32,000 nt of DNA from Haloarchaeobius sp. DYHT-AS-18 (GCF_051207375.1 NZ_JBPJZD010000003.1:525612-557611); one strand, 5' to 3'. Numbered from the stretch's first letter, positions 6,161 through 19,494 are shown. Translations and numbers: made by a program. The notes: generated by a model not told the origin, from the sequence alone.

Positions 6161-7467
6161 CCATGCACGAGACAGACAACCAGACGGACGAGGACGAGGA
6201 CGAGGGAGTGGACGAACAGCCAGACCTGCAAGCGCGCGTCGAAGCCGCACTCCGGCAGGTCCGCGACCCCGAGGCCGGCGTGAACGTGTTCGAGGCGGGC
6301 CTGGTCGAGAACCTCGTGGTCGACGGGGGGAGCGCGACCGTCGAGGCGGACCTCTCTGACTTCGACCCGGCCGGCGAGCAGCAGGTGGTCGGGGCGGTCC
6401 TGCAGGCGGTCCGATCCGTCCCCGGAATCGAGTCGGCCCACGTCGAACCGGTAGCTCCGACGCCGGATTCGGACGTGGACCGCGACAGCGGGACGGCCGC
6501 CTTCGACACCGTCATCGCGGTCGCCAGCGCGAAGGGCGGCGTCGGCAAGTCGACCGTCTCGACGATGCTGGCCTGCGCACTCGCCGGTGACCAGGCGGTC
6601 GGCCTGTTCGATGCGGACGTGCACGGGCCGAACGTCCCGACCCTGCTCGACATCGCGGGCCCCATCCACTCCGACGACGACGGGCACCCATTACCCGTCG
6701 AGGTGCCCGGGGAGGGCACCCTCGAAGCCATGAGCATCGGGTTGATGGAGCAGGGCGCACCACTCGGCTGGCGCGGCGCGATGGCACACGACGCCGTGAC
6801 GGAACTGTTCGAGGACACGGCCTGGTCGAACACGGACACGCTGGTGCTCGACCTCCCGCCGGGAACCGGCGACGTGGTGCTGACGACGCTGCAGGAGGTC
6901 CACGTCGACGGCGTGGTCGTCGTGACGACGCCGTTCCCGTCGGCGGTCGAGGACACCGCGAGGAGCGTCGAGCTGTTCCGGGACAACGACGTGCCGGTTC
7001 TCGGGACCGTCGTCAACATGGGCGGGTTCACCTGCCCGTCCTGTGGCGACACCCACGACCTCTTCCCGGACGGCTCGCCAATGGACGACCTCCAGACGAC
7101 GACGCTGGCGGAACTCCCGTTCGCCACCGAGTTGCAGGAGCCGCCGGTCCCGGGAGCCGTGCCCGAGGTGGTCGAGCCACTGGGTGACGCGGTCACCGAG
7201 GCCGCCCAGACCACCTGGGACGTCGGCGCGCCCGAGTCGGCGGTCGATATCCGCGGGCTCCCGCCACAGGACCGCAAGCAGGAAGTCCGCGAGGCGTTCG
7301 CTGACCTCGAGTCTGGCGACCCCTTCGTGGTCGTCAGCGACCGGGACCCCTCACCCATCCGGGCGTTCCTCGCCGAACTCGCCGGTGCGAAACCGTCGGC
7401 GTTCGACCCGTTCACCGTCAAGCGGGCCACCCCACACGACTGGCTCTTGCGGACGACCAGGCCATGA
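6157..7467 (+). CDS. apbC: Mrp/NBP35/ApbC-type Fe-S cluster carrier ATPase with N-terminal DUF59-like and C-terminal DUF2249-like domains
   Basis: Deviant Walker A (VASAKGGVGKST) and CPSCG Fe-S ligand motif. N-terminus LRQVRDPEAGVNVFEAGLV is DUF59-like. The C-terminal ~75 aa (VDIRGLPPQDRKQEVREAFADLESGDPFVVVSDRDPSPI) aligns with the standalone DUF2249 gene at 13909-14142. The start could instead be ATG 6163. Confidence 0.8.
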   Translation: MTMHETDNQTDEDEDEGVDEQPDLQARVEAALRQVRDPEAGVNVFEAGLVENLVVDGGSATVEADLSDFDPAGEQQVVGAVLQAVRSVPGIESAHVEPVAPTPDSDVDRDSGTAAFDTVIAVASAKGGVGKSTVSTMLACALAGDQAVGLFDADVHGPNVPTLLDIAGPIHSDDDGHPLPVEVPGEGTLEAMSIGLMEQGAPLGWRGAMAHDAVTELFEDTAWSNTDTLVLDLPPGTGDVVLTTLQEVHVDGVVVVTTPFPSAVEDTARSVELFRDNDVPVLGTVVNMGGFTCPSCGDTHDLFPDGSPMDDLQTTTLAELPFATELQEPPVPGAVPEVVEPLGDAVTEAAQTTWDVGAPESAVDIRGLPPQDRKQEVREAFADLESGDPFVVVSDRDPSPIRAFLAELAGAKPSAFDPFTVKRATPHDWLLRTTRP

Positions 7468-8156
7468 CGGGCGACCGGGAGACGTCGGTGCTGCCAGCTT
7501 CTTCCCTCACGGGCGTCGTCCTCGCGGGTGGGACCAGCACGCGGTTCGGACCGACTCCGAAAGCGACGGCGACGCTCGACGGACGGCCCCTGGTGGACCG
7601 GGTCGTCCGCCGGCTCTGGCGGGCGACCGGGCGACCGCCGGTGGTCGCGGCTCGCAGTGCAGCGAAACGCGAGCTGGTCACCGAGGCCGTCTCCGAACCG
7701 GTCCGGTTCACCCCCGATGCGGACTGGTGTGGCGGCCCGGTTGCCGGTCTCGCCGGGTCGCTGGATGCGGTCGAGACCGACCGCGTGTTCGTCTGTGGCT
7801 GTGATATGCCCCTGCTCTCGCCCGCGGCGGTTTCCTGGCAGGCGGCCCGGTTGCAGACGACCGAAGCGAACGCGGTGGTTCCCATGGACGTCGAGGGGCA
7901 GCCACAGCTCCTCCACGGGGTATTCGACCGTGACGCGCTCGCGTCGCTGTTCGAGACGCGCCCCGACGACGACCGGCTCCGGGTCGTGCTCGACCGGCTG
8001 ACCGTCGACCGGGTTCCACAGCACGAGGCACCCCAGAACATCCCCCTCGCCCGGTCGACGGTGAACGTCAACACCCGGGGCGACCTACGTTCGATACCGA
8101 CGATGGAAGCCGCGGTCGGTCACGGCCCCGACCCGGGCGAACACGTTCGGAACTAA
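7464..8156 (+). CDS. mobA: Molybdenum cofactor guanylyltransferase
   Basis: 230 aa. N-terminal GVVLAGGTSTRFG nucleotidyl-transferase motif and a GCDMP motif. ATGA overlap with the mrp gene. Confidence 0.8.
   Translation: MTGDRETSVLPASSLTGVVLAGGTSTRFGPTPKATATLDGRPLVDRVVRRLWRATGRPPVVAARSAAKRELVTEAVSEPVRFTPDADWCGGPVAGLAGSLDAVETDRVFVCGCDMPLLSPAAVSWQAARLQTTEANAVVPMDVEGQPQLLHGVFDRDALASLFETRPDDDRLRVVLDRLTVDRVPQHEAPQNIPLARSTVNVNTRGDLRSIPTMEAAVGHGPDPGEHVRN
8138..8149. promoter_or_regulatory. Palindromic operator CGAACACGTTCG (site 1)
   Basis: Lies inside the last codons of mobA. Centre is 44.5 nt upstream of ATG 8188. The 16-mer GGCGAACACGTTCGGA is identical to site 8. Confidence 0.7.
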
Positions 8157-8187
8157 ATCGAGGGGACCCGCGGTCCTCTATCCACGT

Positions 8188-9507
8188 ATGCGACCAGCCG
8201 TGACCGACCTCGACACGGGACAGGGCCCCCCGACGGCCATCCCGCTGCGCCACTTCCTCGTCGCCCTCGCCTTCCTCGCGGCCGGGATGGGCCTGTGGGT
8301 GATTCGACTGTACCCGACACCGCAGCGGGTAGCCCCGCCGCCCGCGGTGGTACACGCGGTCGTCGTGGGCTGGATCTGTCTCACCATCATGGGCGCGATG
8401 ACGCAGTTCGTCCCGGTGTGGTCGGGAGTGCGACTCCACTCGACCCGGCTGGCCAGACTCCAGTTGCCACTCGTCGCCGGCGGGGTCGTCGGAATCGTGG
8501 CCGGGTTCTGGTCGATGACGCTCTGGCTGGTGCCCGCGGGTGGGCTCCTCGCCGGTCTCGGCCTCTGGCTGTTCACCTACAACATCTGGCGGACGCTCCC
8601 GCCCCGTGGCGACCGCGACGTGACGGAGACCCACTTCGCGGTTGCACTCGCCTTCCTCTCGGCGGTCCCGGCGGTGGGACTCGCACTCGGTGCGGGATTC
8701 CTCGACCCGGCCGTACTCGACTCGCTCCCTCCCAGGGACAGGCTCGTGTCGGCACACGCCACCATGGCGGTGTTCGGGGTCATCCTGCCGACGGTGTTCG
8801 GGGCGCTCTACCAGCTCGCGGTGATGTTCGCCGGGACGAGCCTCGACGAGCGTGACCAACGATTCCAGCGCGTGGAGACGGCGGTGTACCCACTGGGTGT
8901 CGGCGTGCTCGCGGCAGGTCGGCTGCTGGATTCGTCGCCGGTCGCCCGCCTCGGCGGTGCCCTCGTCCTCGTGGGTGTGGCCGCCTTCACCGTCGTGTTA
9001 GGTCGAGTGCTCCGTCGCCGGACCGTCGAGACCACGCCGACGCTGGCCCGGTACGGGGTCGTCGCCGTCGCCCTCGCGTGCTGGGTGGTCCTGACGGTCC
9101 CAGCGTGGGTGGGCGGCGACCCGACGGCGGCGACGGCCCGGTACGGCGGCACTGGTGGGGTCGCCCTCCTGCTGTTCGGCGGGGTCGCCGTCGTGGTCGT
9201 CGGGAGCCTCTATCACGTGATTCCGTTCCTCGTCTGGCTGGAGCGCTACAGCGACCTGCTCGGCTACGAGCCGGTGCCGATGGTCGAGGACCTGTTCGAC
9301 CACCGGCTGGCGAGAGCCGACTTCTGGCTGGTGGTGGCCGGGACCGGACTGGTCGCCGGAGCCGACCTGCGCTGGGTCCCTGGAACGGTCTTCACCGGTG
9401 GGGTCGTGTTGCTGCTGACTGGCTTCCTGCTCGTGGCGGCCAACATGGGACTCGTCGTGCACCGGGATGCGGGCCAGCCCGACCGGGGCGCTGTTGACGC
9501 GGACTGA
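8188..9507 (+). CDS. 12-TM integral membrane protein with conserved His in several helices (tentatively NnrS-like)
   Basis: 439 aa with about 12 hydrophobic helices. Motifs: VHAVVVGWICLTIMGAMTQFVPVWSG, AHATMAVFGVILPTVFGALYQ, GSLYHVIPF. The operator sits at -44.5. Confidence 0.7.
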   Translation: MRPAVTDLDTGQGPPTAIPLRHFLVALAFLAAGMGLWVIRLYPTPQRVAPPPAVVHAVVVGWICLTIMGAMTQFVPVWSGVRLHSTRLARLQLPLVAGGVVGIVAGFWSMTLWLVPAGGLLAGLGLWLFTYNIWRTLPPRGDRDVTETHFAVALAFLSAVPAVGLALGAGFLDPAVLDSLPPRDRLVSAHATMAVFGVILPTVFGALYQLAVMFAGTSLDERDQRFQRVETAVYPLGVGVLAAGRLLDSSPVARLGGALVLVGVAAFTVVLGRVLRRRTVETTPTLARYGVVAVALACWVVLTVPAWVGGDPTAATARYGGTGGVALLLFGGVAVVVVGSLYHVIPFLVWLERYSDLLGYEPVPMVEDLFDHRLARADFWLVVAGTGLVAGADLRWVPGTVFTGGVVLLLTGFLLVAANMGLVVHRDAGQPDRGAVDAD

Positions 9508-9594
9508 GCCGGAACGGTCGGAGAACGATATAAATCACCCTGACAATCGAGGCAGGGCACTGTTATCCCGGCTGGGACAACGTAGAGGTGTATC

Positions 9595-9894
9595 ATGACA
9601 GACATCGCCGACCTGAACGAGTTCGAGTCGACCCCTCACGCGGAAGTGTTCGCTGCCCCCGGTCCTCGCGTGGTTCGGCTCCAGCTCGAAGCCGGAGACG
9701 AGATGCCCGAACACAGCCATCCGGGTGAGACCATCGTCCTGCACGTGCTCGCTGGTGAACTCGACCTCAGGCTCGACGGCGAACCGAATCATCTCCAGGG
9801 GGACGAACTGATCCGGTTCGACGGGGACCAGGACATCCAGCCGCGCGCCCTCTCGGACACGAAAGCGCTGCTGTTCTTCTGTACGACTGAGTGA
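9595..9894 (+). CDS. Cupin-domain protein
   Basis: 99 aa. HSHPGETIVLHVLAGELDLRLDGE is a typical cupin_2 metal-binding motif. A TATA-like GATATAAAT lies about 60 nt upstream. Confidence 0.75.
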   Translation: MTDIADLNEFESTPHAEVFAAPGPRVVRLQLEAGDEMPEHSHPGETIVLHVLAGELDLRLDGEPNHLQGDELIRFDGDQDIQPRALSDTKALLFFCTTE

Positions 9895-9984
9895 GCAAGA
9901 AGCGAATCGGGTGGGTGGGACGAGACCCTGCACTCTGGTCCTGCCCGATCCCGGTTGCCTGCACCGACTGGGTGCCTGCACCGA

Positions 9985-11172
9985 CTAGCGGTTCGCGCGC
10001 TCTCGAAAGAGACCCCCGAGGAGCCAGACGTGAGCCACGGCCCCGGCGAGTGCGCTGACACCGCCGAGGAGTTCGAAGACGGGGACGTCGAACGCGAGGC
10101 CGGTCACTCCCAGCACGAGCCCCACCAGCAGACAGGCGATCGCGCCGAGCGCCGTCCGGTCCCCAGCGCCCGGGAAGGTCCCGACCGCAGGCGGGTAGAA
10201 CTGGTAGCTCACGCCGACGATGGTCAGCCCGAGGAAGCCGACGAGATTCAGGCGGGCATGTGCGAGCCCGAGGCCGGGCTGGAGACCACCCAGCGCGAAC
10301 TGCAGGCCGAGGCCGACCCCGAGGCAGCCACACACTGCGCCCGCGAGCACGCCGTAGAACCCGACCCGACGGCGTTCGGACCGGTAGGAGAGCACCCCGA
10401 GCACGATGGCGAAGGCGACGACGGCCGAGGCTTCGAGGACGGCCCCGAGCCGGAACCACTGCCCGCTCGGGAGGTACGTGGCGATGAGCAACGGCCCACC
10501 TGCCGCGGCCGGAAAGACGAGCACAGGCGCGAACCGCGGCGGGGTGGCGACGAAGAAGCGCGGCAGCAATCGGAATCCCACGGCGAACACGAACAGTGCG
10601 CCGGTACCCGCCGCGAGCAGGTGGCTGGACCGGGCGAGGCTCCCATCGAACACCACCGGGAGACCGGTTTCGGCCGCGAGCACACCGTAAGACCCGAGCA
10701 GGAGATACACGAGAGCGACCGGGACGAACGCGTTCGCCACCCTGTCGAGTGCCTGCCGGTGCGTGTTCACGGCACCGGTCCCGGTCGCCGCACCGGAGAG
10801 GTCACCGCGGACCGTCCACAGCAGCGACCCGGCGAAGACGAGGACGCCGAGCGACCAGCAGAGCGCGCCGACTGTCCCGACCCACGCCGGGGAAGCCCGC
10901 AGTCCGTCGAGTGCAAGCAGGGCTGTCCCCCCGACCGAAAGCGGAAACTGGACGAATGGGGCGCGCGCCACGGCGAGTTCGCGGTCGAAGTACACCGGAA
11001 TCAGCGAGTAGCCCTTCCCGAACACGGTGTGCAGGACGAACCCGAACAGGACGAGGACGACCTCGACGCGTCTCGGGGTGCCGATAAGCGCGGCGAGTGC
11101 CCAGACGAGGAGGAAGAGCGCGCCGGTGAACACGAACCGGCGGGCCCACCTCGAGACCGTGGCGGTCGTCAT
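9985..11172 (-). CDS. 12-TM integral membrane protein related to the 8188-9507 product
   Basis: 395 aa starting MTTATVSRW (ATG at 11172). The upstream part of the 680-aa track ORF is Arg/Pro-rich and looks like an artefact. It shares AHA-x5-G-x4-T-x2-G-x2-YQ at identical spacing with the 8188 protein. Confidence 0.7.
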   Translation of the reverse strand: MTTATVSRWARRFVFTGALFLLVWALAALIGTPRRVEVVLVLFGFVLHTVFGKGYSLIPVYFDRELAVARAPFVQFPLSVGGTALLALDGLRASPAWVGTVGALCWSLGVLVFAGSLLWTVRGDLSGAATGTGAVNTHRQALDRVANAFVPVALVYLLLGSYGVLAAETGLPVVFDGSLARSSHLLAAGTGALFVFAVGFRLLPRFFVATPPRFAPVLVFPAAAGGPLLIATYLPSGQWFRLGAVLEASAVVAFAIVLGVLSYRSERRRVGFYGVLAGAVCGCLGVGLGLQFALGGLQPGLGLAHARLNLVGFLGLTIVGVSYQFYPPAVGTFPGAGDRTALGAIACLLVGLVLGVTGLAFDVPVFELLGGVSALAGAVAHVWLLGGLFRERANR

Positions 11173-11177
11173 CGCGC

Positions 11178-11759
11178 TCAGTACGGTGCCTGCGGGCCGG
11201 GCCCGGGCGGGACGTCGGAGCCGGTGGGTTCGAGGGCGTCGAGTTCGTCCGGGTGCGGAATCTGGCCGGTCTCGCGGAACTCGGTCTCCAGGACCGAGAG
11301 CACGTCGTTCGCGGTTGCACTCGCCTGGTGGGACGGAGCGATTCTGACCCGCACGAGGTCGTAGTCGTGTCGGTCGGAGAGCCCGTTCAGGGCCCGGAAC
11401 ACGGCCGTCACGAGGGTCTGCCCCTGCGGGCAGAACTCGGTCGTCGGGGTGAACTCGACGCGGAGGACGCCCTCCTCGTCCGACGACTCGGCGTACCGGA
11501 ATCCTGCATCGGGGTGTCGACTGTCCCGGTTGAGGCGCGCGAGGTTGTACCCGAAGGTCACGTCGTAGACGCCGCGTTCCTCGAAACACTCCCTGGCCAC
11601 CGAATGGACCCTGACGTGCGCATCGCCGGTCAGCACCTCGTGGCCGGCGAGGAACGGTCCCGGGTCGGGGAGGTGTTCGAGGACGAAGGCGTCCTGGGGG
11701 TCGAACGGCTCCTCCGTGCCATCGTCGTCGCTGCCAGAGAACGGTGATGGGAACTGCAT
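11178..11759 (-). CDS. Acidic hypothetical protein with a DUF59/MIP18-like T-x-T-x-x-x-C-P motif
   Basis: 193 aa from ATG 11759 (MQFPSPF). The track start at 11807 lies inside the palindromic operator. The motif VEFTPTTEFCPQGQTLVTAVFRAL resembles DUF59. Only 5 nt separate it from the downstream membrane gene. Confidence 0.6.
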   Translation of the reverse strand: MQFPSPFSGSDDDGTEEPFDPQDAFVLEHLPDPGPFLAGHEVLTGDAHVRVHSVARECFEERGVYDVTFGYNLARLNRDSRHPDAGFRYAESSDEEGVLRVEFTPTTEFCPQGQTLVTAVFRALNGLSDRHDYDLVRVRIAPSHQASATANDVLSVLETEFRETGQIPHPDELDALEPTGSDVPPGPGPQAPY

Positions 11760-11797
11760 CTCGTCCGTGCCTACGGACGCCTGCGTGGTATGGTTGC

Positions 11798-11815
11798 GCA
11801 CGAACATGTTCGTGC
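11798..11815. promoter_or_regulatory. Perfect 18-bp palindrome GCACGAACATGTTCGTGC (operator site 2)
   Basis: Lies between the rSAM stop (11856) and ATG 11759. Centre is 47.5 nt upstream of that ATG. Confidence 0.7.
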
Positions 11816-11855
11816 TCGCGGGACAGAAACGGGTGTCGCTCGAAACGGGCGACCC

Positions 11856-12977
11856 TCAATCGGCTGGGCCGCCGGTGCTCGCCTCGGGGTGGCGGTCCGG
11901 GAGCGGGCCGTCGTATCCCTTCGGCACGTACGGACAGAGCGGGTCGGCGGCGAGAGGGTCCCCGGTGACCGCGGCGGCACGGGACCGGCTCCCGCCACAG
12001 ACGCCGCGGAAGGGACAGGCACCGCACTTGCCGCCGAGTTCGTCGGGGTCGCGCAGTCGCTGGAAGAGGTCGGCGTTCCGGTAGACGTCGACGACATCGT
12101 CCCGTCGGACGTTCCCGGCTGGGTGTGGCAGGAACCCGGACGGGTACACCTCGCCGACGTGACTGACGAAGGCGAACCCGTCACCGGCCTTGATGCCAGC
12201 GCGACGCCCGATGGCGTCGGCCGCCGGCCGGTCGGTTCCGTCGTCCTCCCCGGCCGATTGCTGGATGGCGACGCGCCGGTAGTGGGGTGCCTCGGTCGTC
12301 TTCACCCCGAACTCCGCAGACTCGCTCACCTCGTGGAGCCAGCGCATCACCGATTCGGCCGTCTCCGGGGAGACCGGGTCCAGCAGGGCACCGCGCCCGA
12401 CCGGCACGAGGAAGAACACGGACCAGAGGACCGCACCGAGGTCGGCCACGAGTTCGCGGATCGCGGGGAGTTCGTCGACCGTCTGTGCACACACCGTCGT
12501 GTTGACCTGCAGTGGCAGCCCCACCTCGCGGGCGGCCCGCGCTGCCGCGACGGTGTCGTCGAAGCTCCCCTGCTCGCCCCGGAAGGCGTCGTGTGCCTCG
12601 GCGGAGCCGCCGTCGATGCTGAGGGCCATCCGACGAAGACCGGCGTCGGACAGGCGCTCGATTCGGTCGGGAGTGAGCGAGGACGTGCCACTGGGCGTGA
12701 GCGTCATCCTGAGCCCCTGCTCGGCCCCGAAAGTGACGAGCTCTGCGAGGTCGCCACGTGCCAGCGGGTCGCCGCCCGAAAGCACGACGAGCTGGCCGTC
12801 GCCGAACTCGCTGGCGTCTTCCAGGAGGCGCTTTCCTTCCTCGGTGGTCAGCTCGTCGGGGTGACGCTGTGGCTTCGCGTCGGCGCGACAGTGCTCGCAG
12901 GCGAGTTCGCACGCCTGCGTCACCTCCCAGACGAGCACGAACGGTCGTTCCTCGGTGTCGATGGTTGCCGGGTTCAT
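11856..12977 (-). CDS. Radical SAM enzyme with C-terminal SPASM/twitch-like Cys cluster
   Basis: 373 aa from ATG 12977. C23-x3-C27-x2-C30 (QACELACEHC) sits right at the N-terminus. C-terminal GKCGACPFRGVCGG...DPLCPY. Confidence 0.85.
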   Translation of the reverse strand: MNPATIDTEERPFVLVWEVTQACELACEHCRADAKPQRHPDELTTEEGKRLLEDASEFGDGQLVVLSGGDPLARGDLAELVTFGAEQGLRMTLTPSGTSSLTPDRIERLSDAGLRRMALSIDGGSAEAHDAFRGEQGSFDDTVAAARAAREVGLPLQVNTTVCAQTVDELPAIRELVADLGAVLWSVFFLVPVGRGALLDPVSPETAESVMRWLHEVSESAEFGVKTTEAPHYRRVAIQQSAGEDDGTDRPAADAIGRRAGIKAGDGFAFVSHVGEVYPSGFLPHPAGNVRRDDVVDVYRNADLFQRLRDPDELGGKCGACPFRGVCGGSRSRAAAVTGDPLAADPLCPYVPKGYDGPLPDRHPEASTGGPAD

Positions 12978-12979
12978 GG

Positions 12980-13285
12980 TCACTCGACGGAGACGCGGGT
13001 GACGTGCCCGCCACAGCCGCACTGTTCGACGTACTCGCAGCTGATGTCGTCGCCGAAACGGTCGGCGAGGTGCTCGAAGAGGTAGGTCTCGGGATGCCCG
13101 TGGTCGCCGTGAGTCACCAGGTTCACGTGGTTCCCGGCTGCCGTGTGCTCGACCGCCTCCACGGCCTGTGCGAGCACGAGGTCGCGGTCGTCGGCGTGGG
13201 CCGGCCGCTCCAGGTTCGCCGACCACGAGTTGTCGTGGACGGTGTCGGTGACCGGGTCGACTGCGTCGTGCGAGACTGGTGCCAT
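12980..13285 (-). CDS. His-rich 101-aa acidic protein ending ...CEYVEQCGCGGHVTRVSVE; putative rSAM substrate (CGCGG-motif protein)
   Basis: ATG at 13285. The stop is 2 nt from the rSAM start. 10 His and 3 Cys, all three Cys within the last 19 residues. The operator sits at -44.5. Confidence 0.7.
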   Translation of the reverse strand: MAPVSHDAVDPVTDTVHDNSWSANLERPAHADDRDLVLAQAVEAVEHTAAGNHVNLVTHGDHGHPETYLFEHLADRFGDDISCEYVEQCGCGGHVTRVSVE

Positions 13286-13323
13286 ACGCGAGAGTCGTTC
13301 CGGGACCCACGAAACCCTCATCG

Positions 13324-13335
13324 CGAACATGTTCG
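13324..13335. promoter_or_regulatory. Operator CGAACATGTTCG (site 3)
   Basis: Centre is 44.5 nt upstream of the minus-strand ATG at 13285. Confidence 0.7.
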
Positions 13336-13348
13336 TGGACACGGGGTG

Positions 13349-13360
13349 CGAACATCTTCG
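13349..13360. promoter_or_regulatory. Operator CGAACATCTTCG (site 4)
   Basis: Centre is 44.5 nt upstream of the plus-strand ATG at 13399. One central mismatch to the perfect palindrome. Confidence 0.65.
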
Positions 13361-13398
13361 GGGCAAACGACCTATGCCAGCCACCGGAATGGACGAAT

Positions 13399-13677
13399 AT
13401 GGCGGCGAAGACAGATCCACCGACGCTGTCCGCGTTCCTGGAACGGAGCAACGCGCCGACCGACGGCAGCCTGGACCGGCTCGACGTGGCGGACCTACCG
13501 CCACCACAGCCGCTCACGAAGACGCTCGAGCACCTCGCAGACCTCGACGGCGGCGTGCTGGTCCAGTTCAACGACCGAGCGCCCAAACACCTCTATCCGA
13601 AGCTGAACGAGCGGGGCTTCCGATACGAGACAGAGGAGATCGCCGGGCGCATCGTGACCCTCATCTGGCGGGGGTGA
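13399..13677 (+). CDS. DUF2249-like small protein (subtype 2)
   Basis: 92 aa from ATG 13399 (MAAKTDPP). LDVADLPPPQPLTKTLEHLADLDGGVLVQFNDRAPKHLYPKLNERGF. Confidence 0.65.
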   Translation: MAAKTDPPTLSAFLERSNAPTDGSLDRLDVADLPPPQPLTKTLEHLADLDGGVLVQFNDRAPKHLYPKLNERGFRYETEEIAGRIVTLIWRG

Positions 13678-13770
13678 CGGTCGCCAGACATCGATTCCTC
13701 ACCACCCACCCTCACCTCGGAGTCACCGCGGCCTCGGACCGCCGCCGGTGACCCACCTCACCTCAGTCGT

Positions 13771-13849
13771 TCCTCACACTCTTGCCCGACAGTCCTCACA
13801 CTCTTGCCCGATAGTCCTCACACTCTTGCCCGATAGTCCTCACACTCTG
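13771..13849. repeat. 22-bp tandem repeat TCCTCACACTCTTGCCCGA(C/T)AG, 3.6 copies
   Basis: Copies at 13771-13792, 13793-13814 and 13815-13836, plus a partial copy at 13837-13849. Sits in a CTCAC-rich stretch (about 13690-13870) between convergent genes. Confidence 0.9.
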
Positions 13850-13874
13850 CCTCGCCGAACCGCACACTCACCGC

Positions 13875-13890
13875 TTCGAAAAAGAGAGTA
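13875..13890 (-). terminator. Oligo-T terminator candidate for the minus-strand DUF2249 gene
   Basis: Plus-strand AAAAA at 13879-13883 gives T5 on the minus strand, 26 nt after the stop at 13909. Confidence 0.4.
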
Positions 13891-13908
13891 CCTGGGCAGC
13901 GGCAGCTG

Positions 13909-14142
13909 TCACTGCTTGGGCAGCGTCGCGATGAACTCGGTGTCGCTCACCTGGTCGAGTTCGTAGCCCTCGGCGTCGAAGTCGTCGCGCTCGGCCTGTA
14001 GCTGGTAGTACAGCGGCTGGGGGTCGTGGTCGTTGACCAGCGTCAACGCCTCTCCCGAGTCGAGCGCGTCGAACGCCTCGAATATCTTCTCGTGGCGGTT
14101 CCGCGGTGCGTACTCACGTGCGTCGATGGTCGTCTCGGTCAC
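13909..14142 (-). CDS. DUF2249-like small protein (subtype 1)
   Basis: 77 aa from GTG 14142, the only in-frame start before the domain. IDAREYAPRNRHEKIFEAFDALDSGEALTLVNDHDPQPLYYQL. The rest of the 317-aa track ORF is antisense to the regulator gene. Confidence 0.65.
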   Translation of the reverse strand: MTETTIDAREYAPRNRHEKIFEAFDALDSGEALTLVNDHDPQPLYYQLQAERDDFDAEGYELDQVSDTEFIATLPKQ

Positions 14143-14180
14143 AGGTGAACGGTCTCCGCGGTCCGTCGAAGTCGTTCTGC

Positions 14181-14192
14181 CGAACGTGTTCG
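14181..14192. promoter_or_regulatory. Operator CGAACGTGTTCG (site 5)
   Basis: Centre is 44.5 nt upstream of the minus-strand GTG at 14142. Confidence 0.65.
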
Positions 14193-14223
14193 TCGCCCGC
14201 GAGAGACAACCCGACCGTTCGGC

Positions 14224-14235
14224 CGAACATGTTCG
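14224..14235. promoter_or_regulatory. Operator CGAACATGTTCG (site 6)
   Basis: Centre is 51.5 nt upstream of ATG 14281. Confidence 0.65.
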
Positions 14236-14258
14236 TCGCCACTGTTTCCTCCCTGGGC

Positions 14259-14270
14259 CGAATACGTTCG
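14259..14270. promoter_or_regulatory. Operator CGAATACGTTCG (site 7)
   Basis: Centre is 16.5 nt upstream of ATG 14281, so it overlaps the expected core promoter or initiation region. Confidence 0.55.
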
Positions 14271-14280
14271 GGTAGGAACG

Positions 14281-14934
14281 ATGGCCCGAGCGAACCTGAC
14301 TATCACCGTGCCCGAAGACGTCTGGGTCGGCCGCGTCTCCAGAGCGTACCCGAATGCCCGGATCCGCATCCTCGCCGCGCTCCCCGACGGCGACCACGGG
14401 GTCGCCCTGGCGGAGGTGACGAGCGACCAGCTCCCCGACCTCGTCGGTGACATCCGGACCGCGGAGATGATCGTCGACCTGGACCTGCTCCAGCACCATG
14501 GCGAGACCGCCCTGATCCAGTTCGAGACCACGACGCCGCTGTTGCTCCAGCCCATCAAGAGTTCGGGTATCCCACTGGAGATGCCGTTCGACATCAAGGA
14601 CGGGCAGGCGAAGTGGGAGATAAACGCCCCGCAGGAGCACCTCTCCCGGCTCGGCGAGAAGCTCGAGGAGTTCGGTATCCCCTTCGACGTCGAAGAGCTT
14701 CGCCATCAGGTCGAACCCGACCCGGCACTCACCCCACGACAGCGGACCCTCATCGTCGAGGCAGTGGAGCGTGGCTACTACGATACGCCCCGGGAGTGCA
14801 CGCTGACCGACCTGGCCGAGGCGCTCGACCTCGCGAAGTCGACCTGTAGCGAGACGCTGCACCGCGCGGAGGAGACGATAATCAAGGAGTTCGTGGCGGA
14901 GCTTCCCGACTCGCAGGTGTCGCGAGAGGACTGA
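14281..14934 (+). CDS. HTH-10 (Bat/halobacterial type) DNA-binding transcription regulator
   Basis: 217 aa. The C-terminus LTPRQRTLIVEAVERGYYDTPRECTLTDLAEALDLAKSTCSETLHRAEETIIKEF is the characteristic HTH_10 domain. Confidence 0.8.
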   Translation: MARANLTITVPEDVWVGRVSRAYPNARIRILAALPDGDHGVALAEVTSDQLPDLVGDIRTAEMIVDLDLLQHHGETALIQFETTTPLLLQPIKSSGIPLEMPFDIKDGQAKWEINAPQEHLSRLGEKLEEFGIPFDVEELRHQVEPDPALTPRQRTLIVEAVERGYYDTPRECTLTDLAEALDLAKSTCSETLHRAEETIIKEFVAELPDSQVSRED

Positions 14935-14961
14935 CGGACCGACTGGGGTCGGCGAACGGGG

Positions 14962-14973
14962 CGAACACGTTCG
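14962..14973. promoter_or_regulatory. Operator CGAACACGTTCG (site 8), upstream of qNor
   Basis: Centre is 74.5 nt upstream of ATG 15042, which is 30 nt further than the -44.5 class. Confidence 0.65.
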
Positions 14974-15010
14974 GACACCTTCTCAGGTCGCGGTAGCTGG
15001 CCTGTAGTGC

Positions 15011-15017
15011 ATTATTA
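15011..15017 (+). promoter_or_regulatory. TATA-like box ATTATTA for qNor
   Basis: AT-rich heptamer about 28 nt upstream of ATG 15042, consistent with a leaderless or near-leaderless transcript. Confidence 0.4.
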
Positions 15018-15041
15018 CACCTGTTCGAACCACCAGATGAG

Positions 15042-17324
15042 ATGGAGATACGACGACAGACGCTCGCGAAGATACTGGTACTGGTCTTCGTGTTCAACCT
15101 GGCCGTCATGGGCTTTGGTGCATGGTACTCCACCGAGAACGCGCCACCCATTCCGAAGGAGGTGGTCGGCCCGGACGGCCAGCAGGTGGTGACGGACGAA
15201 CAGGTACGCACCGGCAAGACGGTGTTCCAGTCGGACGGCATGATGAACCACGGGTCCATCCTCGGGAACGGGGCATACTTCGGCGTGGACTACACCGCCG
15301 ATGCACTGGACCTGAAGGTGCAACACATGCGGGAGTACTACGCCCGCGAGCGCCATGGCGAGTCCTACTCGGCTCTCTCGTCGCCCGAGCAGGCGGCCAT
15401 CGACGAGGTCGTCCAGCGCGATCTCGACTCGGGAACCGTCGACGAGACCATCGAGTACTCCGCCGCGGAGATGTACGCGCACGAGCAGGTGCGTGAGGTC
15501 TACGTCGAACGCTACCACGAAGGCAGTCCCGAGCGAGGTGTGCCCGAGGGGATGGTCGCCTCCGAGGAGGAGGCCCGACAGTTCGCCGACTTCGCGATGT
15601 GGACGGCGTGGATGAGCCACACCGACCGACCGGGCAGCGAGCACTCGTACACGAACGAGTGGCCGTTCCAGCCCGCAGCCGGGAACACTCCCGGTGCCTC
15701 CGCGATGACCTGGAGCGTCATCGCGATGGTGCTGCTGGTCGCGGGCGCTGGTATCGGCGTCTGGCTCTACAAATCGGTCGACCTGCCCGAACCGTCGGCC
15801 GCCGGTATCGAGGTTCCCGACCCCGACGAGAGCGACCTGCTCCCGAGCCAGGCCGCGGCGGTGAAGTTCGTGCCGGTCGCGGCGCTGCTGTTCGCCGGAC
15901 AGGTCCTGCTCGGTGGGTTACTGGCCCACTACTACGTCGAGCGCTCGGCGTTCTTCGGCATCGAGTCGGTGTTCGGCATCCCGATTATCGACCTGCTGCC
16001 CTTCGCACTGGCGAAGACGTGGCACATCGACCTCGCCATCCTGTGGATCGCGACGCTGTGGCTCGGCGCGGGGCTGTTCCTCGCGCCGCTGCTGACCGGC
16101 TACGAGCCCGAGAACCAGTCGCGCTACGTCTACGGGCTCCTCGGCGCGCTCGTGGTCGTGTCCGTCGGCGGCCTGACGGGCATCTACCTCGGCGCGAACG
16201 AGTTCTTCCAGGGTGACCTCTGGTGGCTCCTCGGGAACGAGGGGCTGGAGTACCTCGAGGTCGGGAAGGTCTGGCAGTTCGGGCTGCTGCTCGGCTTCGG
16301 CGCGTGGGCGGTCCTCGTCGCCCGCGGGTTCGGGCCACTGCTCGACCGTGAGCCCCGGTTCGGCCTCGCGCACATGATACTCTACGCCGGCGGGTCCATC
16401 GGCCTGCTGTTCGTCGCCGGCTTCATGTTCACCCCCCAGACCAACATCGCGGTGACGGAGTTCTGGCGCTGGTGGGTCGTCCACATGTGGGTCGAGGGTG
16501 CGTTCGAGTTCTTCATCGTCGCCATCGTCGGCCTCACCCTCGTCTCGATGAACCTGCTGGAGAAGCGGTCGGCCGAGAAGGCGGTGATGGTCGAGGCGCT
16601 GCTCGTGATGGGGACCGGCGTCATCGGTGTCTCCCACCACTACTGGTGGGTCGGGATGCCGGACGTGTGGGTGCCCATCGGGAGCGTCTTCTCGACGCTG
16701 GAGCTCATCCCGCTGGTGTTCATCCTCTACGAGGCGCTCAACGAGTACGGGGCGCTCTCGGCCAGCGGCGAGGACTTCCCCTACCGGCTCCCGTTCATGT
16801 TCATCATCGCCAGCGGGGTGTGGAACTTCGTCGGGGCCGGCGTCCTCGGCTTCTTCATCAACCTCCCGCTGGTGAACTACTACGAGCACGGGACCTACCT
16901 GACGGTCGGGCACGCTCACGCCGCGATGTTCGGCGCGTTCGGCTTCCTCGCGCTCGGGATGGCGACCTACATGCTCCGCCTCACCACGACCGACTGGAAG
17001 CCCAGACGTCTCCGGGCCGCGTTCTGGCTGTGGAACGTCGGCCTCGCGCTGATGGTGTTCGTCTCGGTGCTCCCCGTCGGCTTCCTGCAGCTCGAAGCCG
17101 CGTTCACCGCGAACTACGACGCGGCCCGGAGCCTGGCGTTCTACAACGGCGAGCTGGTCCAGTTGCTGTTCTGGGCTCGCCTGCCCGGTGACACGATGCT
17201 CATCGCCGGGACGCTGCTGTTCGCCTACGACGTGGTCGAGAAGCTGTTCGCCCAGCGTGAGGTGACGGCAGCCGACGAGTCCGACGGCGTCGTCGCGACC
17301 CGGATGGCAACCGACGACGACTGA
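15042..17324 (+). CDS. norZ: Quinol-dependent nitric oxide reductase (qNor; haem-copper oxidase subunit I family with N-terminal extension)
   Basis: 760 aa. One N-terminal TM plus a ~200-aa soluble domain, then 12 or more TM helices with HCO-type His motifs (HYWWVG, GHAHAAMFG, WVVHMWVEG). Confidence 0.9.
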   Translation: MEIRRQTLAKILVLVFVFNLAVMGFGAWYSTENAPPIPKEVVGPDGQQVVTDEQVRTGKTVFQSDGMMNHGSILGNGAYFGVDYTADALDLKVQHMREYYARERHGESYSALSSPEQAAIDEVVQRDLDSGTVDETIEYSAAEMYAHEQVREVYVERYHEGSPERGVPEGMVASEEEARQFADFAMWTAWMSHTDRPGSEHSYTNEWPFQPAAGNTPGASAMTWSVIAMVLLVAGAGIGVWLYKSVDLPEPSAAGIEVPDPDESDLLPSQAAAVKFVPVAALLFAGQVLLGGLLAHYYVERSAFFGIESVFGIPIIDLLPFALAKTWHIDLAILWIATLWLGAGLFLAPLLTGYEPENQSRYVYGLLGALVVVSVGGLTGIYLGANEFFQGDLWWLLGNEGLEYLEVGKVWQFGLLLGFGAWAVLVARGFGPLLDREPRFGLAHMILYAGGSIGLLFVAGFMFTPQTNIAVTEFWRWWVVHMWVEGAFEFFIVAIVGLTLVSMNLLEKRSAEKAVMVEALLVMGTGVIGVSHHYWWVGMPDVWVPIGSVFSTLELIPLVFILYEALNEYGALSASGEDFPYRLPFMFIIASGVWNFVGAGVLGFFINLPLVNYYEHGTYLTVGHAHAAMFGAFGFLALGMATYMLRLTTTDWKPRRLRAAFWLWNVGLALMVFVSVLPVGFLQLEAAFTANYDAARSLAFYNGELVQLLFWARLPGDTMLIAGTLLFAYDVVEKLFAQREVTAADESDGVVATRMATDDD

Positions 17325-17325
17325 C

Positions 17326-17348
17326 GGCCCACGCTCGGCCTCGATTTT
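17326..17348 (+). terminator. Weak hairpin plus T4 downstream of qNor
   Basis: GGCC-N7-GGCC followed by TTTT at 17345-17348. Confidence 0.3.
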
Positions 17349-17388
17349 CACGCATACCTAACCTGTTCCGGTACAAGTCGATACGTCC

Positions 17389-17400
17389 TGAACACGTTCG
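17389..17400. promoter_or_regulatory. Operator-like TGAACACGTTCG (site 9)
   Basis: One mismatch to the consensus. Centre is 15.5 nt upstream of ATG 17410. Confidence 0.45.
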
Positions 17401-17409
17401 TATATGTAG

Positions 17410-18405
17410 ATGCGAAGGGCCACCCTCGCCGTCGTGCTCGTGCTGGTGCTCGTGAGCGCCGGCTGCGTGGGCTCGTGGCCGGGACAACCGGCTCCTGATT
17501 CGCCCGGCGGCGAGGAGGCTGGGACGACCGCGACCGTCACACGCGTCATCGACGGTGACACCATCGAGATCCGGTACCAGAACGGGACCGTCGACACGGT
17601 TCGATTGCTCGGCGTCGACACCCCGGAAGTCCACAAGGGAGTCGAACCGGAGGAGTATCCGGGCATCCCCGACAGCCTCGCGGGGCGTGACTGGCTTCGC
17701 AACTGGGGCGAGAACGCCAGCACGTTCGTCAAGCAGAACCTCGCGGGCGAGACGGTCCGGGTCGTCGTCGACCCGGAATCAGACGTTCGTGGCTACTACG
17801 GCCGCCTGCTCGCCTACGTCTACTACGATGACGGCGTGATGCTCAACGAGGAGCTGCTGCGGCGGGGCCTCGCACGCGTGTACGACTCGAAGTTCTCGAA
17901 GAAGGAGCACTTCTACGCGCTGGAAACCGAGGCCCGCGAGCAGGGTGTCGGCATCTGGGGCTTCGGCGGCGGCAGCGGTGCCAGCACGTCGGTCGAACTC
18001 TCGGTGGTCACCATCCAGGCTGACGCACCCGGCAACGACAACGAGAACCCGACGGGCGAGTACGTCACCTTCCGGAACACGGGCGACGCGACGGTCGACC
18101 TCTCTGGCTTCGTCGTCTCGGACGCGGCGAACCACGAGTTCGTCATCCCGGAGGGCGTGACGCTGGCCCCTGGAGCCGAGCTGACGCTCCGGAGCGGCCG
18201 CGGCCAGGACACCGAGTCCACCCTCTACTGGGGGAGCGACCGCGCCATCTGGAACAACGGCGGCGACACCATCACGGTTCGGACCGCCACGGGCCTGGTC
18301 GTACTCGAGGAATCCTACAGTTCGACGGGCTCGATTGTGGCCGATTCTGTAGATAGACGCCCCGAACCGCCAGAGTATTCGTTTTCTACTATCGTAGTAG
18401 TGTAG
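17410..18405 (+). CDS. Secreted lipoprotein: staphylococcal (thermo)nuclease domain fused to a lamin-tail domain
   Basis: Signal peptide with lipobox (LVLVSAGC). The SNase motif is VIDGDTIEIRY...VRLLGVDTPE...YGRLLAYV. The C-terminal LTD-like region is PGNDNENPTGEYVTFRNTGDATVDLSGFVVSD. Confidence 0.8.
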   Translation: MRRATLAVVLVLVLVSAGCVGSWPGQPAPDSPGGEEAGTTATVTRVIDGDTIEIRYQNGTVDTVRLLGVDTPEVHKGVEPEEYPGIPDSLAGRDWLRNWGENASTFVKQNLAGETVRVVVDPESDVRGYYGRLLAYVYYDDGVMLNEELLRRGLARVYDSKFSKKEHFYALETEAREQGVGIWGFGGGSGASTSVELSVVTIQADAPGNDNENPTGEYVTFRNTGDATVDLSGFVVSDAANHEFVIPEGVTLAPGAELTLRSGRGQDTESTLYWGSDRAIWNNGGDTITVRTATGLVVLEESYSSTGSIVADSVDRRPEPPEYSFSTIVVV

Positions 18406-18477
18406 GGGAAACTATTAAGATAGTCAACGCCATAGAGGTAGTTGCGAAGGCCGAGCACCCCCGCTCGGAGGTTCACC

Positions 18478-19494
18478 ATGAACGGAGCCAACCAGACCGT
18501 CAAGACGACCGACAACCGCCCGACGACCTACCGGTCAAACGGTGCCCGAACAGAGACGGACGAGTCCACCACTGCGGAACGTGAAGAGACCTCCTGTCCC
18601 GAGTGCGGTGCCGACAGTATCGCCGACGAAGAACACGGCGAGACGGTCTGCAACGAGTGCGGCCTGGTGCTCGCCGAGGGCAACGTCGACCGTGGGCCGG
18701 AGTGGCGCGCGTTCGACAAGGCCGAGAAGGACAAGAAGTCCCGCGTCGGCGCGCCGACGACCGGGATGCTCCACGACAAGGGCCTCTCCTCGGTCATCGA
18801 CTGGCAGAACAAGGACGCCTACGGCAGCCAGCTCTCGGCGCGCAAGCGCCAGAAGATGCAGCGCCTGCGCACCTGGGACGAGCGTTTCCGTGCCACCAGT
18901 GCCCGGGACCGCAACCTGAAGCAGGCGCTCGGCGAGATCACCCGAATGGCGAGCGCGCTGGACCTCCCCGACAACGTCCAGGAGACCGCATCGGTCATCT
19001 ACCGCCGCGCCCTCGAAGAGGACCTCCTCCCCGGTCGGTCCATCGAGGCCATGGCGACCGCGTCCCTCTACGCCGCGGCCCGGCAGAGCAACGTGCCCCG
19101 GAGCCTCGACGAGTTCGCCCCCGTGAGCCGCGTCGACCGCCGTGAGTTCGCTCGGGCGTACCGCTACATCGGGCGCGAGCTCGGCCTCGCCGTCGAGCCC
19201 GCCGACCCGGCCGAGTACCTGCCGCGGTTCTGCTCGGAGCTCGAGGTCTCCCACGAGGTCAAGACCCTCGCCCACGAGCTCATCGAGTCCGGCAAGCGCC
19301 AGAGCGTCCACAGCGGCAAGTCCCCGGTCGGCCTCGCCGCGGCGGCCATCTACGCTGCCTCCCTGCTGGCCAACGAGAAGTTGACCCAGAAGGAGGTCGG
19401 CGAAGCCGCCGAGGTCAGCGAGGTCACCATCCGCAACCGCTACAAGGAGCTCTTGCACGCGAACGACGAGAGCCAGCAGCAGGCGACCGCCTGA
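18478..19494 (+). CDS. tfb: Transcription initiation factor IIB
   Basis: Zn ribbon CPECG...CNECG, then RAFD and two cyclin-like repeats. I preferred ATG 18478 over the TTG at 18442. Confidence 0.9.
   Translation: MNGANQTVKTTDNRPTTYRSNGARTETDESTTAEREETSCPECGADSIADEEHGETVCNECGLVLAEGNVDRGPEWRAFDKAEKDKKSRVGAPTTGMLHDKGLSSVIDWQNKDAYGSQLSARKRQKMQRLRTWDERFRATSARDRNLKQALGEITRMASALDLPDNVQETASVIYRRALEEDLLPGRSIEAMATASLYAAARQSNVPRSLDEFAPVSRVDRREFARAYRYIGRELGLAVEPADPAEYLPRFCSELEVSHEVKTLAHELIESGKRQSVHSGKSPVGLAAAAIYAASLLANEKLTQKEVGEAAEVSEVTIRNRYKELLHANDESQQQATA

Follow-up and report, generated by a model that had tools for sequence, protein, structure and literature searches.

Palindromic sites in the nar/nor island of Haloarchaeobius sp. 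DYHT-AS-18

The DNA analysed here is a stretch of 32,000 nucleotides from Haloarchaeobius sp. DYHT-AS-18 (NZ_JBPJZD010000003.1:525612-557611), called the window throughout and numbered from its first base. With a G+C content of 67%, it represents the nar/nor island of this strain; its first base falls within narG, and the protein of 439 amino acids (aa) encoded at 8188-9507 is 100% identical to a protein from this organism. The end of a respiratory nitrate reductase operon is followed by accessory genes, a helix-turn-helix (HTH) regulator of the HTH_10 family and a quinol-type nitric oxide reductase gene (nor), and promoters in this region carry copies of the palindrome CGAACNNGTTCG. We propose, with a probability of about 0.6, that these palindromes are operators of a denitrification regulon, to which a dimeric HTH activator, likeliest the HTH_10 protein, would bind at position -44.5.

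Seven exact copies of CGAACNNGTTCG were found in the window, starting at 8138, 10725, 11801, 13324, 14181, 14224 and 14962. The number expected from shuffles preserving the dinucleotide composition is 0.07, and none of 100 shuffles reached seven. When up to one mismatch was allowed, 22 matches were obtained against 2.8 expected. Five of the seven exact copies are intergenic and a sixth (S1 below) lies in the last codons of mobA, 38 bp before the next ATG; the intergenic share of the window, estimated from the gene map, is about 6%. Six exact copies are located at promoters, and the promoter sites mark a compact set of seven transcription units. The sites considered, with distances in nucleotides (nt), are:

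S1, 8138-8149: CGAACACGTTCG, centre 44.5 nt upstream of the ATG at 8188 (plus strand), gene of the 439-aa membrane protein
S2, 11801-11812: CGAACATGTTCG, centre 47.5 nt from the ATG at 11759 (minus strand), gene of a 193-aa protein
S3, 13324-13335: CGAACATGTTCG, centre 44.5 nt from the ATG at 13285 (minus strand), CGCGG gene
S4, 13349-13360: CGAACATCTTCG, one mismatch, centre 44.5 nt from the ATG at 13399 (plus strand), DUF2249 gene
S5, 14181-14192: CGAACGTGTTCG, centre 44.5 nt from the GTG at 14142 (minus strand), DUF2249 gene
S6, 14224-14235: CGAACATGTTCG, distal perfect operator of the HTH_10 gene, centre 51.5 nt from the ATG at 14281
S7, 14259-14270: CGAATACGTTCG, one mismatch, proximal weaker operator of the HTH_10 gene, 16.5 nt from the ATG at 14281
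S8, 14962-14973: CGAACACGTTCG, centre 74.5 nt from the nor ATG at 15042, distal promoter class
S9, 17389-17400: TGAACACGTTCG, one mismatch, doubtful, centre 15.5 nt before the nuclease ATG at 17410

These nine sites had been listed as copies of the palindrome in an earlier sequence-only reading of the window. Six of them are exact; S4, S7 and S9 deviate by one mismatch each, of which only S9 had been flagged. All distances to start codons given there were re-derived and are correct. The strong excess claimed for the motif also holds, although the expectation of 0.002 quoted for it applies to one fully specified 12-mer and not to a pattern with a degenerate centre. The assignment of all nine sites to promoters stands for the six exact copies. 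It is supported for S4, since its variant (CGACATCTTCG with leading CGAA, i.e. CGAACATCTTCG) recurs five times at promoters of the 44.5-nt type in other genomes, and for S7, since this site belongs to a conserved two-site design with 35-bp spacing. S9 is without comparative support, because no nuclease orthologue was found in any of 80 related loci. It carries the C1-to-T change which in Haloferax mediterranei was the mutation that cut nos promoter activity most (Miralles-Robledillo et al. 2023, PMC10062603).

Missing from the earlier list was the exact copy at 10725-10736 (CGAACGCGTTCG). It is centred on GC rather than RY and lies inside the gene of a 398-aa membrane protein, where it encodes A-N-A-F-V. 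As orthologues show the motif only if their residues at this position are identical or nearly so, this copy is regarded as a coding coincidence and non-functional. A role of the palindrome as hairpin or terminator was rejected: the 5-bp stem with a 2-nt loop would form an unstable hairpin, and the sites lie upstream of genes.

Conservation of the spacing between palindrome and start codon

For comparison, the alignment of HTH_10 orthologues described below was used to retrieve relatives from haloarchaeal genomes; of 438 found, 80 loci (1.34 Mb in total) were assembled, and the distance was measured from each site centre to any ATG opening a long reading frame with a high G+C content at third codon positions. 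The set contains 198 exact sites with an RY-biased centre (AT in 58, GT or AC in 86). The histogram of centre-to-ATG distances shows 106 cases at 44.5 nt, with 25 at 43.5 nt and 14 at 45.5 nt, over a background of about 4 per offset. Promoters with a spacing of exactly 44.5 nt occur in 57 of the 80 loci and, according to the record titles, in at least 15 genera. From genus to genus the distance to the start is conserved down to the single nucleotide, unlike the sequence that flanks the site.

The most frequent targets are DUF2249 genes, with 44 cases at 43.5-45.5 nt in 33 loci. In the same distance range, 33 cases were counted for the HTH_10 gene itself and 27 for CGCGG genes, the latter with a site at 44.5 nt in 23-24 loci. 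Orthologues of the membrane protein encoded from 8188 and of the 193-aa protein account for 13 cases each; the site stands at 44.5 nt in 12-13 other loci for the former and at exactly 44.5 nt in 13 loci for the latter. Further targets at 43.5-45.5 nt are a family of proteins of about 140 aa, cupins and some radical SAM (rSAM) genes.

One palindrome can serve two divergent leaderless genes, each start lying 43.5-45.5 nt from the centre (L013:9429, L068:17795, L059:11492, L067:7042 and others, given as locus and position). Of ten candidates for such a two-sided arrangement, at least seven clearly involve pairs of conserved genes. The candidate in the window stems from a spurious overlapping frame, and one more appears spurious.

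Promoter anatomy and predicted leaderless transcripts

A profile was derived from 116 distinct promoters with the 44.5-nt spacing, numbered with the A of the ATG as +1. The motif spans -50 to -39 and is followed by GG at -38/-37 and an A-rich stretch from -36 to -33, which resembles a transcription factor B (TFB) recognition element (BRE). The TATA signal is weak, with W (A or T) at -27 in 82% of the promoters. WW occupies -11/-10 (84% and 72%, respectively), and a pyrimidine precedes the ATG at -1 in 95%. On direct reading, all four promoters of this type in the window have T at -1. Promoter elements described for haloarchaea are a BRE of CGAAA, a TATA element of TTWT and WW at -10, and 72% of the protein-coding transcripts of Haloferax (Hfx.) volcanii are leaderless. 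The profile thus contains what is expected of a leaderless haloarchaeal promoter, i.e. WW at -10/-11, a pyrimidine-purine initiator on the start codon and BRE/TATA between about -38 and -26, the TATA element being weak.

These signatures indicate that the genes of this class would be transcribed into leaderless mRNAs, the start being set at a constant 44.5 bp from the centre of the operator. The distance between site and ATG would be exactly 44.5 nt because the transcript begins on the A of the ATG. At S2, transcription is predicted to start at 11762, which would give a 3-nt leader. By abutting the BRE, the operator occupies the position of an activator, in agreement with the loss of activity published for mutants of the motif. 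The same leaderless, activator-like arrangement had been deduced in the sequence-only reading from the four sites of the window, and the comparison across loci bears it out. As a geometry shared by the whole set it does not extend to nor, whose site at 74.5 nt belongs to a different promoter architecture. The possibility that the palindrome itself represents BRE/TATA was rejected, because this would place the start roughly 15 nt upstream of the conserved ATG and WW signals. A differential RNA sequencing supplement for Hfx. volcanii held no entries of mapped starts for the orthologues HVO_B0159 and HVO_2141-2147.

The HTH_10 regulator and its double operator

The gene at 14281-14934 is the sole HTH_10 open reading frame (ORF) of the window. 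Its HTH_10 domain (PF04967) comprises residues 150-202 and scored 65.9 bits against a cut-off of 23.1. In an alignment with 21 orthologues, which are 55-88% identical to the window protein, the segment AKSTCSETLHRAE of this domain, the presumed recognition helix, was invariant in all 22 sequences from many genera. The conserved cysteines of the family, C173 (>90%) and C189 (invariant), are both located in the HTH domain, and the N-terminal domain of the window protein is free of cysteines. An AlphaFold model (mean predicted local distance difference test score, pLDDT, of 80) shows this N-terminal domain as tandem beta-alpha-beta-beta units. A Foldseek search against the PDB with the model returned nothing informative; the best domain-level match was Ta1207 with a TM-score of 0.44.

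About 75 of the 80 HTH_10 orthologues have an upstream site, centred 43.5-45.5 nt from the ATG in 32 loci and 49.5-53.5 nt in 37. Alignment of these promoters on the distal site revealed that the 13 bp after it are conserved (GGAACACTGATWG, BRE and TATA), and that a T/A initiator keeps its position of +43.5/+44.5 relative to the site even where the ATG is 6-8 nt further off. As the position of the initiator is constant, the start appears to be fixed, and the class with the longer distance merely has a leader of 5-8 nt. For the window gene the predicted start is 14274, where the T/A initiator is present, with a leader of 7 nt.

A second, weaker site with the consensus CGAATATATTCG follows exactly 35 bp downstream of the distal one, at about -15 to -4. 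In the window, S7 lies 35 bp from S6 and is centred about -9.5 from the predicted start. Across the 1.34 Mb, strict CGAA-N4-TTCG pairs with a spacing of 35 bp number 27, and every one of them belongs to an HTH_10 promoter. S7 is presumed to be a negative-feedback site. The combination of a strong activating site with a weak site over the start, present only at the regulator's own gene, suggests autoregulation and points to the HTH_10 protein as the likeliest binder. The odds that the protein of 14281-14934 binds the palindrome are put at somewhat better than even, ahead of NarO, the regulator known from Hfx. volcanii, which we regard as an unlikely binder.

A relative of the HTH_10 protein is encoded at 9001-9663 in the nos-nirK island of Hfx. 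gibbonsii pHGLR1 (L081). It is 51% identical and has Cys55, Cys77 and Cys78; its gene is preceded by CGAATATGTTCC (8891-8902) and then a TATTTTTA box, about 104 nt before the ATG, a layout unlike that in other genera.

A second promoter class at nor, nirK and halocyanin genes

Of 13 loci with nor orthologues, 8 have the site centre at 72.5-74.5 nt from the ATG, in agreement with the 74.5 nt of the window. Halocyanins with a twin-arginine translocation (Tat) signal have the site at 69.5-75.5 nt, and nirK mostly at 84.5-86.5 nt. A TATA-like element was located at +42 to +46 relative to the site centre, which places it some 27-30 nt ahead of the ATGs of nor and halocyanin genes; in the nor promoter of the window it reads CATTATTA, at approximately 15009-15017. 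An alternative in which transcription starts 44.5 nt from the site and yields a leader of 28-30 nt appears less likely, since the WW and initiator signals are inconsistent there. The TATA-like element fits better with a site near -73 in promoters of this type.

An inverted repeat, TTCC-N9-GGAA, lies exactly 20.5 bp from the palindrome (centre to centre) in nor, nirK and halocyanin promoters. Strict cases at this distance number 13, among 79 such patterns in the 1.34 Mb (loci L002, L013, L034-L036, L050, L054, L056-L060 and L072; e.g. L013:11651-11667). The nor promoter of the window has merely a degenerate copy, TTCT-N9-GTAG, at 14980-14996. Palindrome and inverted repeat look like the two parts of a composite operator.

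Gene content of the island

The genes of the window that were assigned are:

Left end of the window: 3' part of the respiratory nitrate reductase (nar) operon, with genes for a truncated molybdopterin subunit, a 4Fe-4S subunit, an EB_dh-type subunit, a NarJ-like chaperone, a HEAT-repeat protein and a Mrp/ParA-DUF2249 fusion
7464-8156: mobA, after the nar operon
8188-9507, plus strand: 439-aa membrane protein, homologues annotated as heme-copper oxidase family
9595-9894, plus strand: cupin
9985-11181, minus strand: 398-aa membrane protein, weak paralogue of the 8188 gene product
11178-11759, minus strand: 193-aa protein without family match
11856-12980, minus strand: TIGR04053 radical SAM/SPASM protein
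12980-13285, minus strand: CGCGG-family protein, 101 aa
13399-13677, plus strand: DUF2249 protein, 92 aa
13909-14142, minus strand: DUF2249 protein, 77 aa, GTG start
14281-14934, plus strand: HTH_10 (Bat-type) regulator, 217 aa
15042-17324, plus strand: quinol-type nitric oxide reductase (nor) with a NorB cytochrome-c-like domain and a COX1 domain
17410-18405, plus strand: secreted SNase/LTD nuclease
18442-19494, plus strand: TFIIB paralogue

The order of the nar genes is that of the nar operon on pHV3 of Hfx. volcanii. The cupin gene is probably part of one transcript with the gene at 8188-9507. The genes of the 193-aa and 398-aa proteins are predicted to form one operon (9985-11759, minus strand), and both proteins are kept in 19-21 of the related loci. 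Searches of Pfam (even at E values up to 10) and NCBIfam gave no match for either membrane protein or for the 193-aa protein. Homologues of the 439-aa protein, one of the two 12-TM proteins of the sequence-only reading, are named heme-copper oxidase family protein or cbb3-type oxidase subunit I, or carry PF00115, and the protein is classified as a divergent heme-copper-oxidase-like protein and a predicted leaderless target of S1. Since both membrane-protein genes stand behind motif sites and the homologues of the first are annotated as oxidases, the two proteins may be divergent relatives of NO- or O2-handling oxidases.

The CGCGG gene and the rSAM gene are translationally coupled, the ATG of the latter overlapping the CGCGG stop at 12980. 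The rSAM protein scored 493 with TIGR04053 (cut-off 395) and 333 with the AhbD heme b synthase model, below the cut-off of 500; the rSAM of the equivalent nirK-nor neighbourhood in Hfx. volcanii (HVO_2144) is called ahbD in the literature. Between the convergent DUF2249 genes, a 22-bp tandem repeat (TCCTCACACTCTTGCCCGATAG) extends over 13771-13848 with 3.5 copies and 98% matches. No terminator-like site was found on scanning the intergenic region 13600-14000.

Directly 3' of nor, the secreted nuclease has a lipobox, an SNase domain and a lamin-tail domain, and the TFIIB paralogue comes next. With nuclease orthologues in none and a TFB gene in four of the 80 related loci, these two genes probably lie outside the conserved island.

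Relation to the denitrification motif of Haloferax

The palindrome matches an element already described in Haloferax. In Hfx. mediterranei, CGAAYATDKTYG is present in the nar, nirK, nor and nos promoters, with exact CGAACATGTTCG in those of nor and nos, and point mutations of the motif lowered the activity of the nos and nor promoters (Miralles-Robledillo et al. 2023, PMC10062603). The published distances between motif and ATG in the nor, nos and nirK promoters range from 66 to 79 nt (values of 66, 69 and 79 nt), and a similar motif was noted in six genera (Hattori et al. 2016, as cited by Miralles-Robledillo et al. 2023, PMC10062603). For Hfx. volcanii, a CGAA-X4-TTCG cis element is on record (Hattori et al. 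2016, as cited in PMC5746218); the palindrome was located in the promoters of denitrification genes and of the rSAM gene ahbD (HVO_2144) and is reported to be essential for nirK transcription (Kosugi et al. 2017). An RNA-seq study of Hfx. mediterranei reported eight motif copies within a 12.5-kb nirK-nor island, and its tables place the motif next to the CGCGG gene and nor, TIGR04053 rSAM and DUF2249 genes, a cupin gene and an HTH gene (Miralles-Robledillo et al. 2024, PMC11218638). Motif-adjacent genes were induced under denitrification with log2 fold changes of 2.8-8.7, and a "bacterioopsin-activator-like" HTH protein was put forward as possible main regulator (PMC11218638). Others have proposed that the co-regulated DUF2249 proteins act as sensors.

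The sites of the window fit the published consensus, and those at 11801, 13324 and 14224 are identical to the nor/nos motif of Hfx. mediterranei. A denitrification enzyme promoter is included, the nor site starting 80 nt before the ATG. Thus the core sequence, the clustering of copies, the neighbours (nor, DUF2249, CGCGG, TIGR04053 rSAM, cupin and HTH_10-type regulator) and, presumably, the activating role are the same in both cases. The differences are that the genus here is Haloarchaeobius and that the nar operon, the accessory genes and nor share one island. That promoter activation under anoxic or denitrifying conditions requires the motif has been published for Haloferax (reporter mutagenesis, RNA-seq).

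The identity with the Haloferax CGAA-N4-TTCG motif, which the sequence-only reading had considered, is therefore confirmed. It had also presented the rSAM/CGCGG module, the DUF2249 genes and the HTH_10 regulator as an extension of the regulon. Both genes of the module are present, the ATG at 13285 belonging to the CGCGG gene and the rSAM start being 12980, but all of these targets are in print for Hfx. mediterranei, and ahbD for Hfx. volcanii. Unchanged expression of the downstream genes with oxygen or nitrate had been named as an outcome that would speak against the proposal; in the relative Hfx. mediterranei the published induction shows the opposite. The link it implied between NarO and the local HTH_10 gene did not hold, as described below. 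The motif and most target genes were thus already known, and the window adds another genus, not a new system. Only refinements look new relative to that literature: the exact -44.5 geometry together with the leaderless signature, a double operator specific to the regulator gene, and the composite operator at nor and nirK. None of these was found described in the Haloferax literature, Hattori et al. (2016) not covered.

Proposed mechanism

A dimeric HTH activator would bind CGAAC-RY-GTTCG with the centre 44.5 bp upstream of the start. The operator at -50 to -39 would directly abut the BRE at about -38 to -33, so that the activator presumably aids the loading of TFB and the TATA-binding protein (TBP) at promoters with a weak TATA element. 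The accessory genes (DUF2249, CGCGG with rSAM, the heme-copper-oxidase-like membrane proteins, the 193-aa protein, cupins and the regulator) would be expressed from leaderless transcripts. Genes of respiratory enzymes, nor here and nirK and halocyanins elsewhere, would have this site some 28-30 bp farther from the start, near -73, and many genomes have the second inverted repeat between the distant site and the core promoter. In the HTH_10 promoter, the perfect distal site would serve activation and the weaker site at -15 to -4 self-limiting repression. An extended version of this model, in which the nor-linked HTH_10 protein rather than NarO is the general master activator of haloarchaeal denitrification at -44.5, limits its own synthesis via the operator 35 bp downstream of the first and has a second factor at TTCC-N9-GGAA as partner in the nor, nirK and halocyanin promoters, is put forward tentatively, its chances being somewhat less than even.

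NarO and other explanations

NarO and the window regulator share a C-terminal HTH_10 domain, a length of about 210 aa and a location in denitrification islands. They differ in that the NarO gene stands beside the nar operon and the HTH_10 gene of the window beside nor, and both occur as separate genes, at most 10 kb apart, in 23 of the 80 loci. NarO of Hfx. volcanii (pHV3) is 38% identical to the window protein over 81 residues in the HTH domain; the alignment is confined to residues 134-201, and the N-terminal domains do not align. The cysteines of NarO (C17 and CAC-X7-C) have no counterpart in the window protein, which does not contain the N-terminal CXnCXCX7C motif. As the homology is restricted to the DNA-binding domain and the cysteine motif is absent, the link to NarO concerns the motif and not the local gene. 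In Hfx. volcanii, narO is itself preceded by CGAATCCGTTCG (L082, pHV3, 26111-26122), with exactly 44.5 nt between the centre of the site and the ATG; such a site is absent from most NarO homologues of other genera.

Several points weigh against the HTH_10 protein as activator at -44.5. Beyond the excess, phasing, promoter signatures and cross-genus conservation of the sites, every mechanistic step (start positions, identity of the binder, TFB/TBP recruitment, negative feedback) is one that we infer for the window organism and its HTH_10 protein. As the TATA signal of the 44.5-nt class is weak, its promoter assignment depends mainly on WW at -10 and the initiator, and the nor-type promoters do not fit the -44.5 geometry. 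A gene regulated by the motif need not encode the protein that binds it. The HTH gene proposed as regulator in Hfx. mediterranei has only a weak motif match, CGAATGTTTTTG (PMC11218638). Moreover, according to citing papers, it was with NarO of Hfx. volcanii that the motif was first associated. NarO is also reportedly required genetically for the activation of nar and nirK in that species.

A NarO-type, oxygen-sensing HTH_10 protein whose gene would lie beyond the window, next to where the nar operon begins, might accordingly be the binder, and the nor-linked HTH_10 gene a mere target in a cascade whose product binds something else. The presence of NarO-like genes in the same island in 23 loci and the palindrome before narO of Hfx. 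volcanii agree with such a cascade. The helix segment of the NarO HTH_10 domain is conserved as well; being conserved in NarO and nor-linked HTH_10 proteins alike, these segments cannot tell which of the two binds. Sites at 44.5-45.5 nt were found at 4 of 24 NarO genes, that of Hfx. volcanii included, compared with an upstream site at about 75 of 80 nor-linked HTH_10 genes, and the 35-bp double operator, a hallmark of autoregulation, is exclusive to the nor-linked HTH_10 promoter. The window contains no NarO-like ORF although it starts inside narG, and Hfx. mediterranei is reported to be without a NarO homologue although its motif functions (PMC10062603). Binding by NarO is for these reasons considered unlikely, and the HTH_10 protein is preferred.

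The remaining explanations are far less probable. If the palindrome were the operator of a repressor, anoxic derepression would account for induction, and the proximal site of the HTH_10 gene (-15 to -4) as well as the doubtful S9 (15.5 nt from the ATG) do lie at usual positions of archaeal repressors. Most sites, however, are at -50 to -39, upstream of BRE/TATA, from where a bound protein would not block TBP, TFB or RNA polymerase, and mutation of the motif lowers promoter activity instead of raising it; repression is thus very improbable. Even less credit is given to the view that the motif extends the core promoter and is recognised by a TFB paralogue dedicated to it, for instance the TFIIB gene product of 18442-19494. 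In favour of this view, the motif borders directly on the BRE, the half-site CGAAC is similar to the CGAAA of haloarchaeal BREs, and the paralogue adjoins the island. Yet perfect palindromes of the 5-2-5 type are characteristic of dimeric HTH proteins, the site is used both at -44.5 and near -73 and serves two divergent genes at once, and the TFB gene is confined to 4 of 80 loci. Chance, codon-driven or repeat-remnant matches without regulatory role would explain the coding copy at 10725, and intragenic copies with one mismatch do exceed the shuffle expectation. For the promoter copies this explanation is refuted by the seven exact copies against 0.07 expected, by the location of six of seven copies at promoters, by a start spacing that is exact to the nucleotide across genera despite unconserved flanks, and by the published mutagenesis. 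Binding of an HTH activator at -44.5 is therefore retained as the preferred explanation.

Significance and comparison with known systems

It is argued that haloarchaeal denitrification releases nitrogen-oxide gases in hypersaline systems (PMC10062603). How the process is regulated is poorly understood. A nucleotide-exact operator position over many leaderless promoters in at least 15 genera offers a precise and testable model of archaeal activation. The model predicts transcription starts to the base, sensitivity to 5-bp insertions and one conserved HTH_10 binder with an autoregulatory double operator. In new genomes the site may also serve as a practical marker for accessory denitrification genes, i.e. 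those of DUF2249, CGCGG/rSAM and heme-copper-oxidase-like proteins.

The proposed arrangement resembles that of Bat at the bop promoter of Halobacterium salinarum, where an HTH_10 (Bat-type) activator, induced at low oxygen, acts through a short upstream activator sequence beside the core promoter. The bop upstream activator sequence lies at about -52 to -39, which would equal the position of the palindrome. Bat differs by its PAS and GAF sensor domains, which the window protein does not have, by another activator sequence and by a regulon for purple membrane and carotenoid synthesis. A functional analogy exists to class II promoters of the bacterial FNR/CRP family (FNR, Dnr, NnrR), where the site is at -41.5. 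There, too, the distance between the start and the short palindrome bound by a dimer is fixed, the site abuts the core promoter and switches on anaerobic or denitrification genes, and a second class of promoters has the site further upstream. The protein family is unrelated, and in the haloarchaeal case the partners would be TBP, TFB and RNA polymerase instead of a sigma factor, and the transcripts leaderless.

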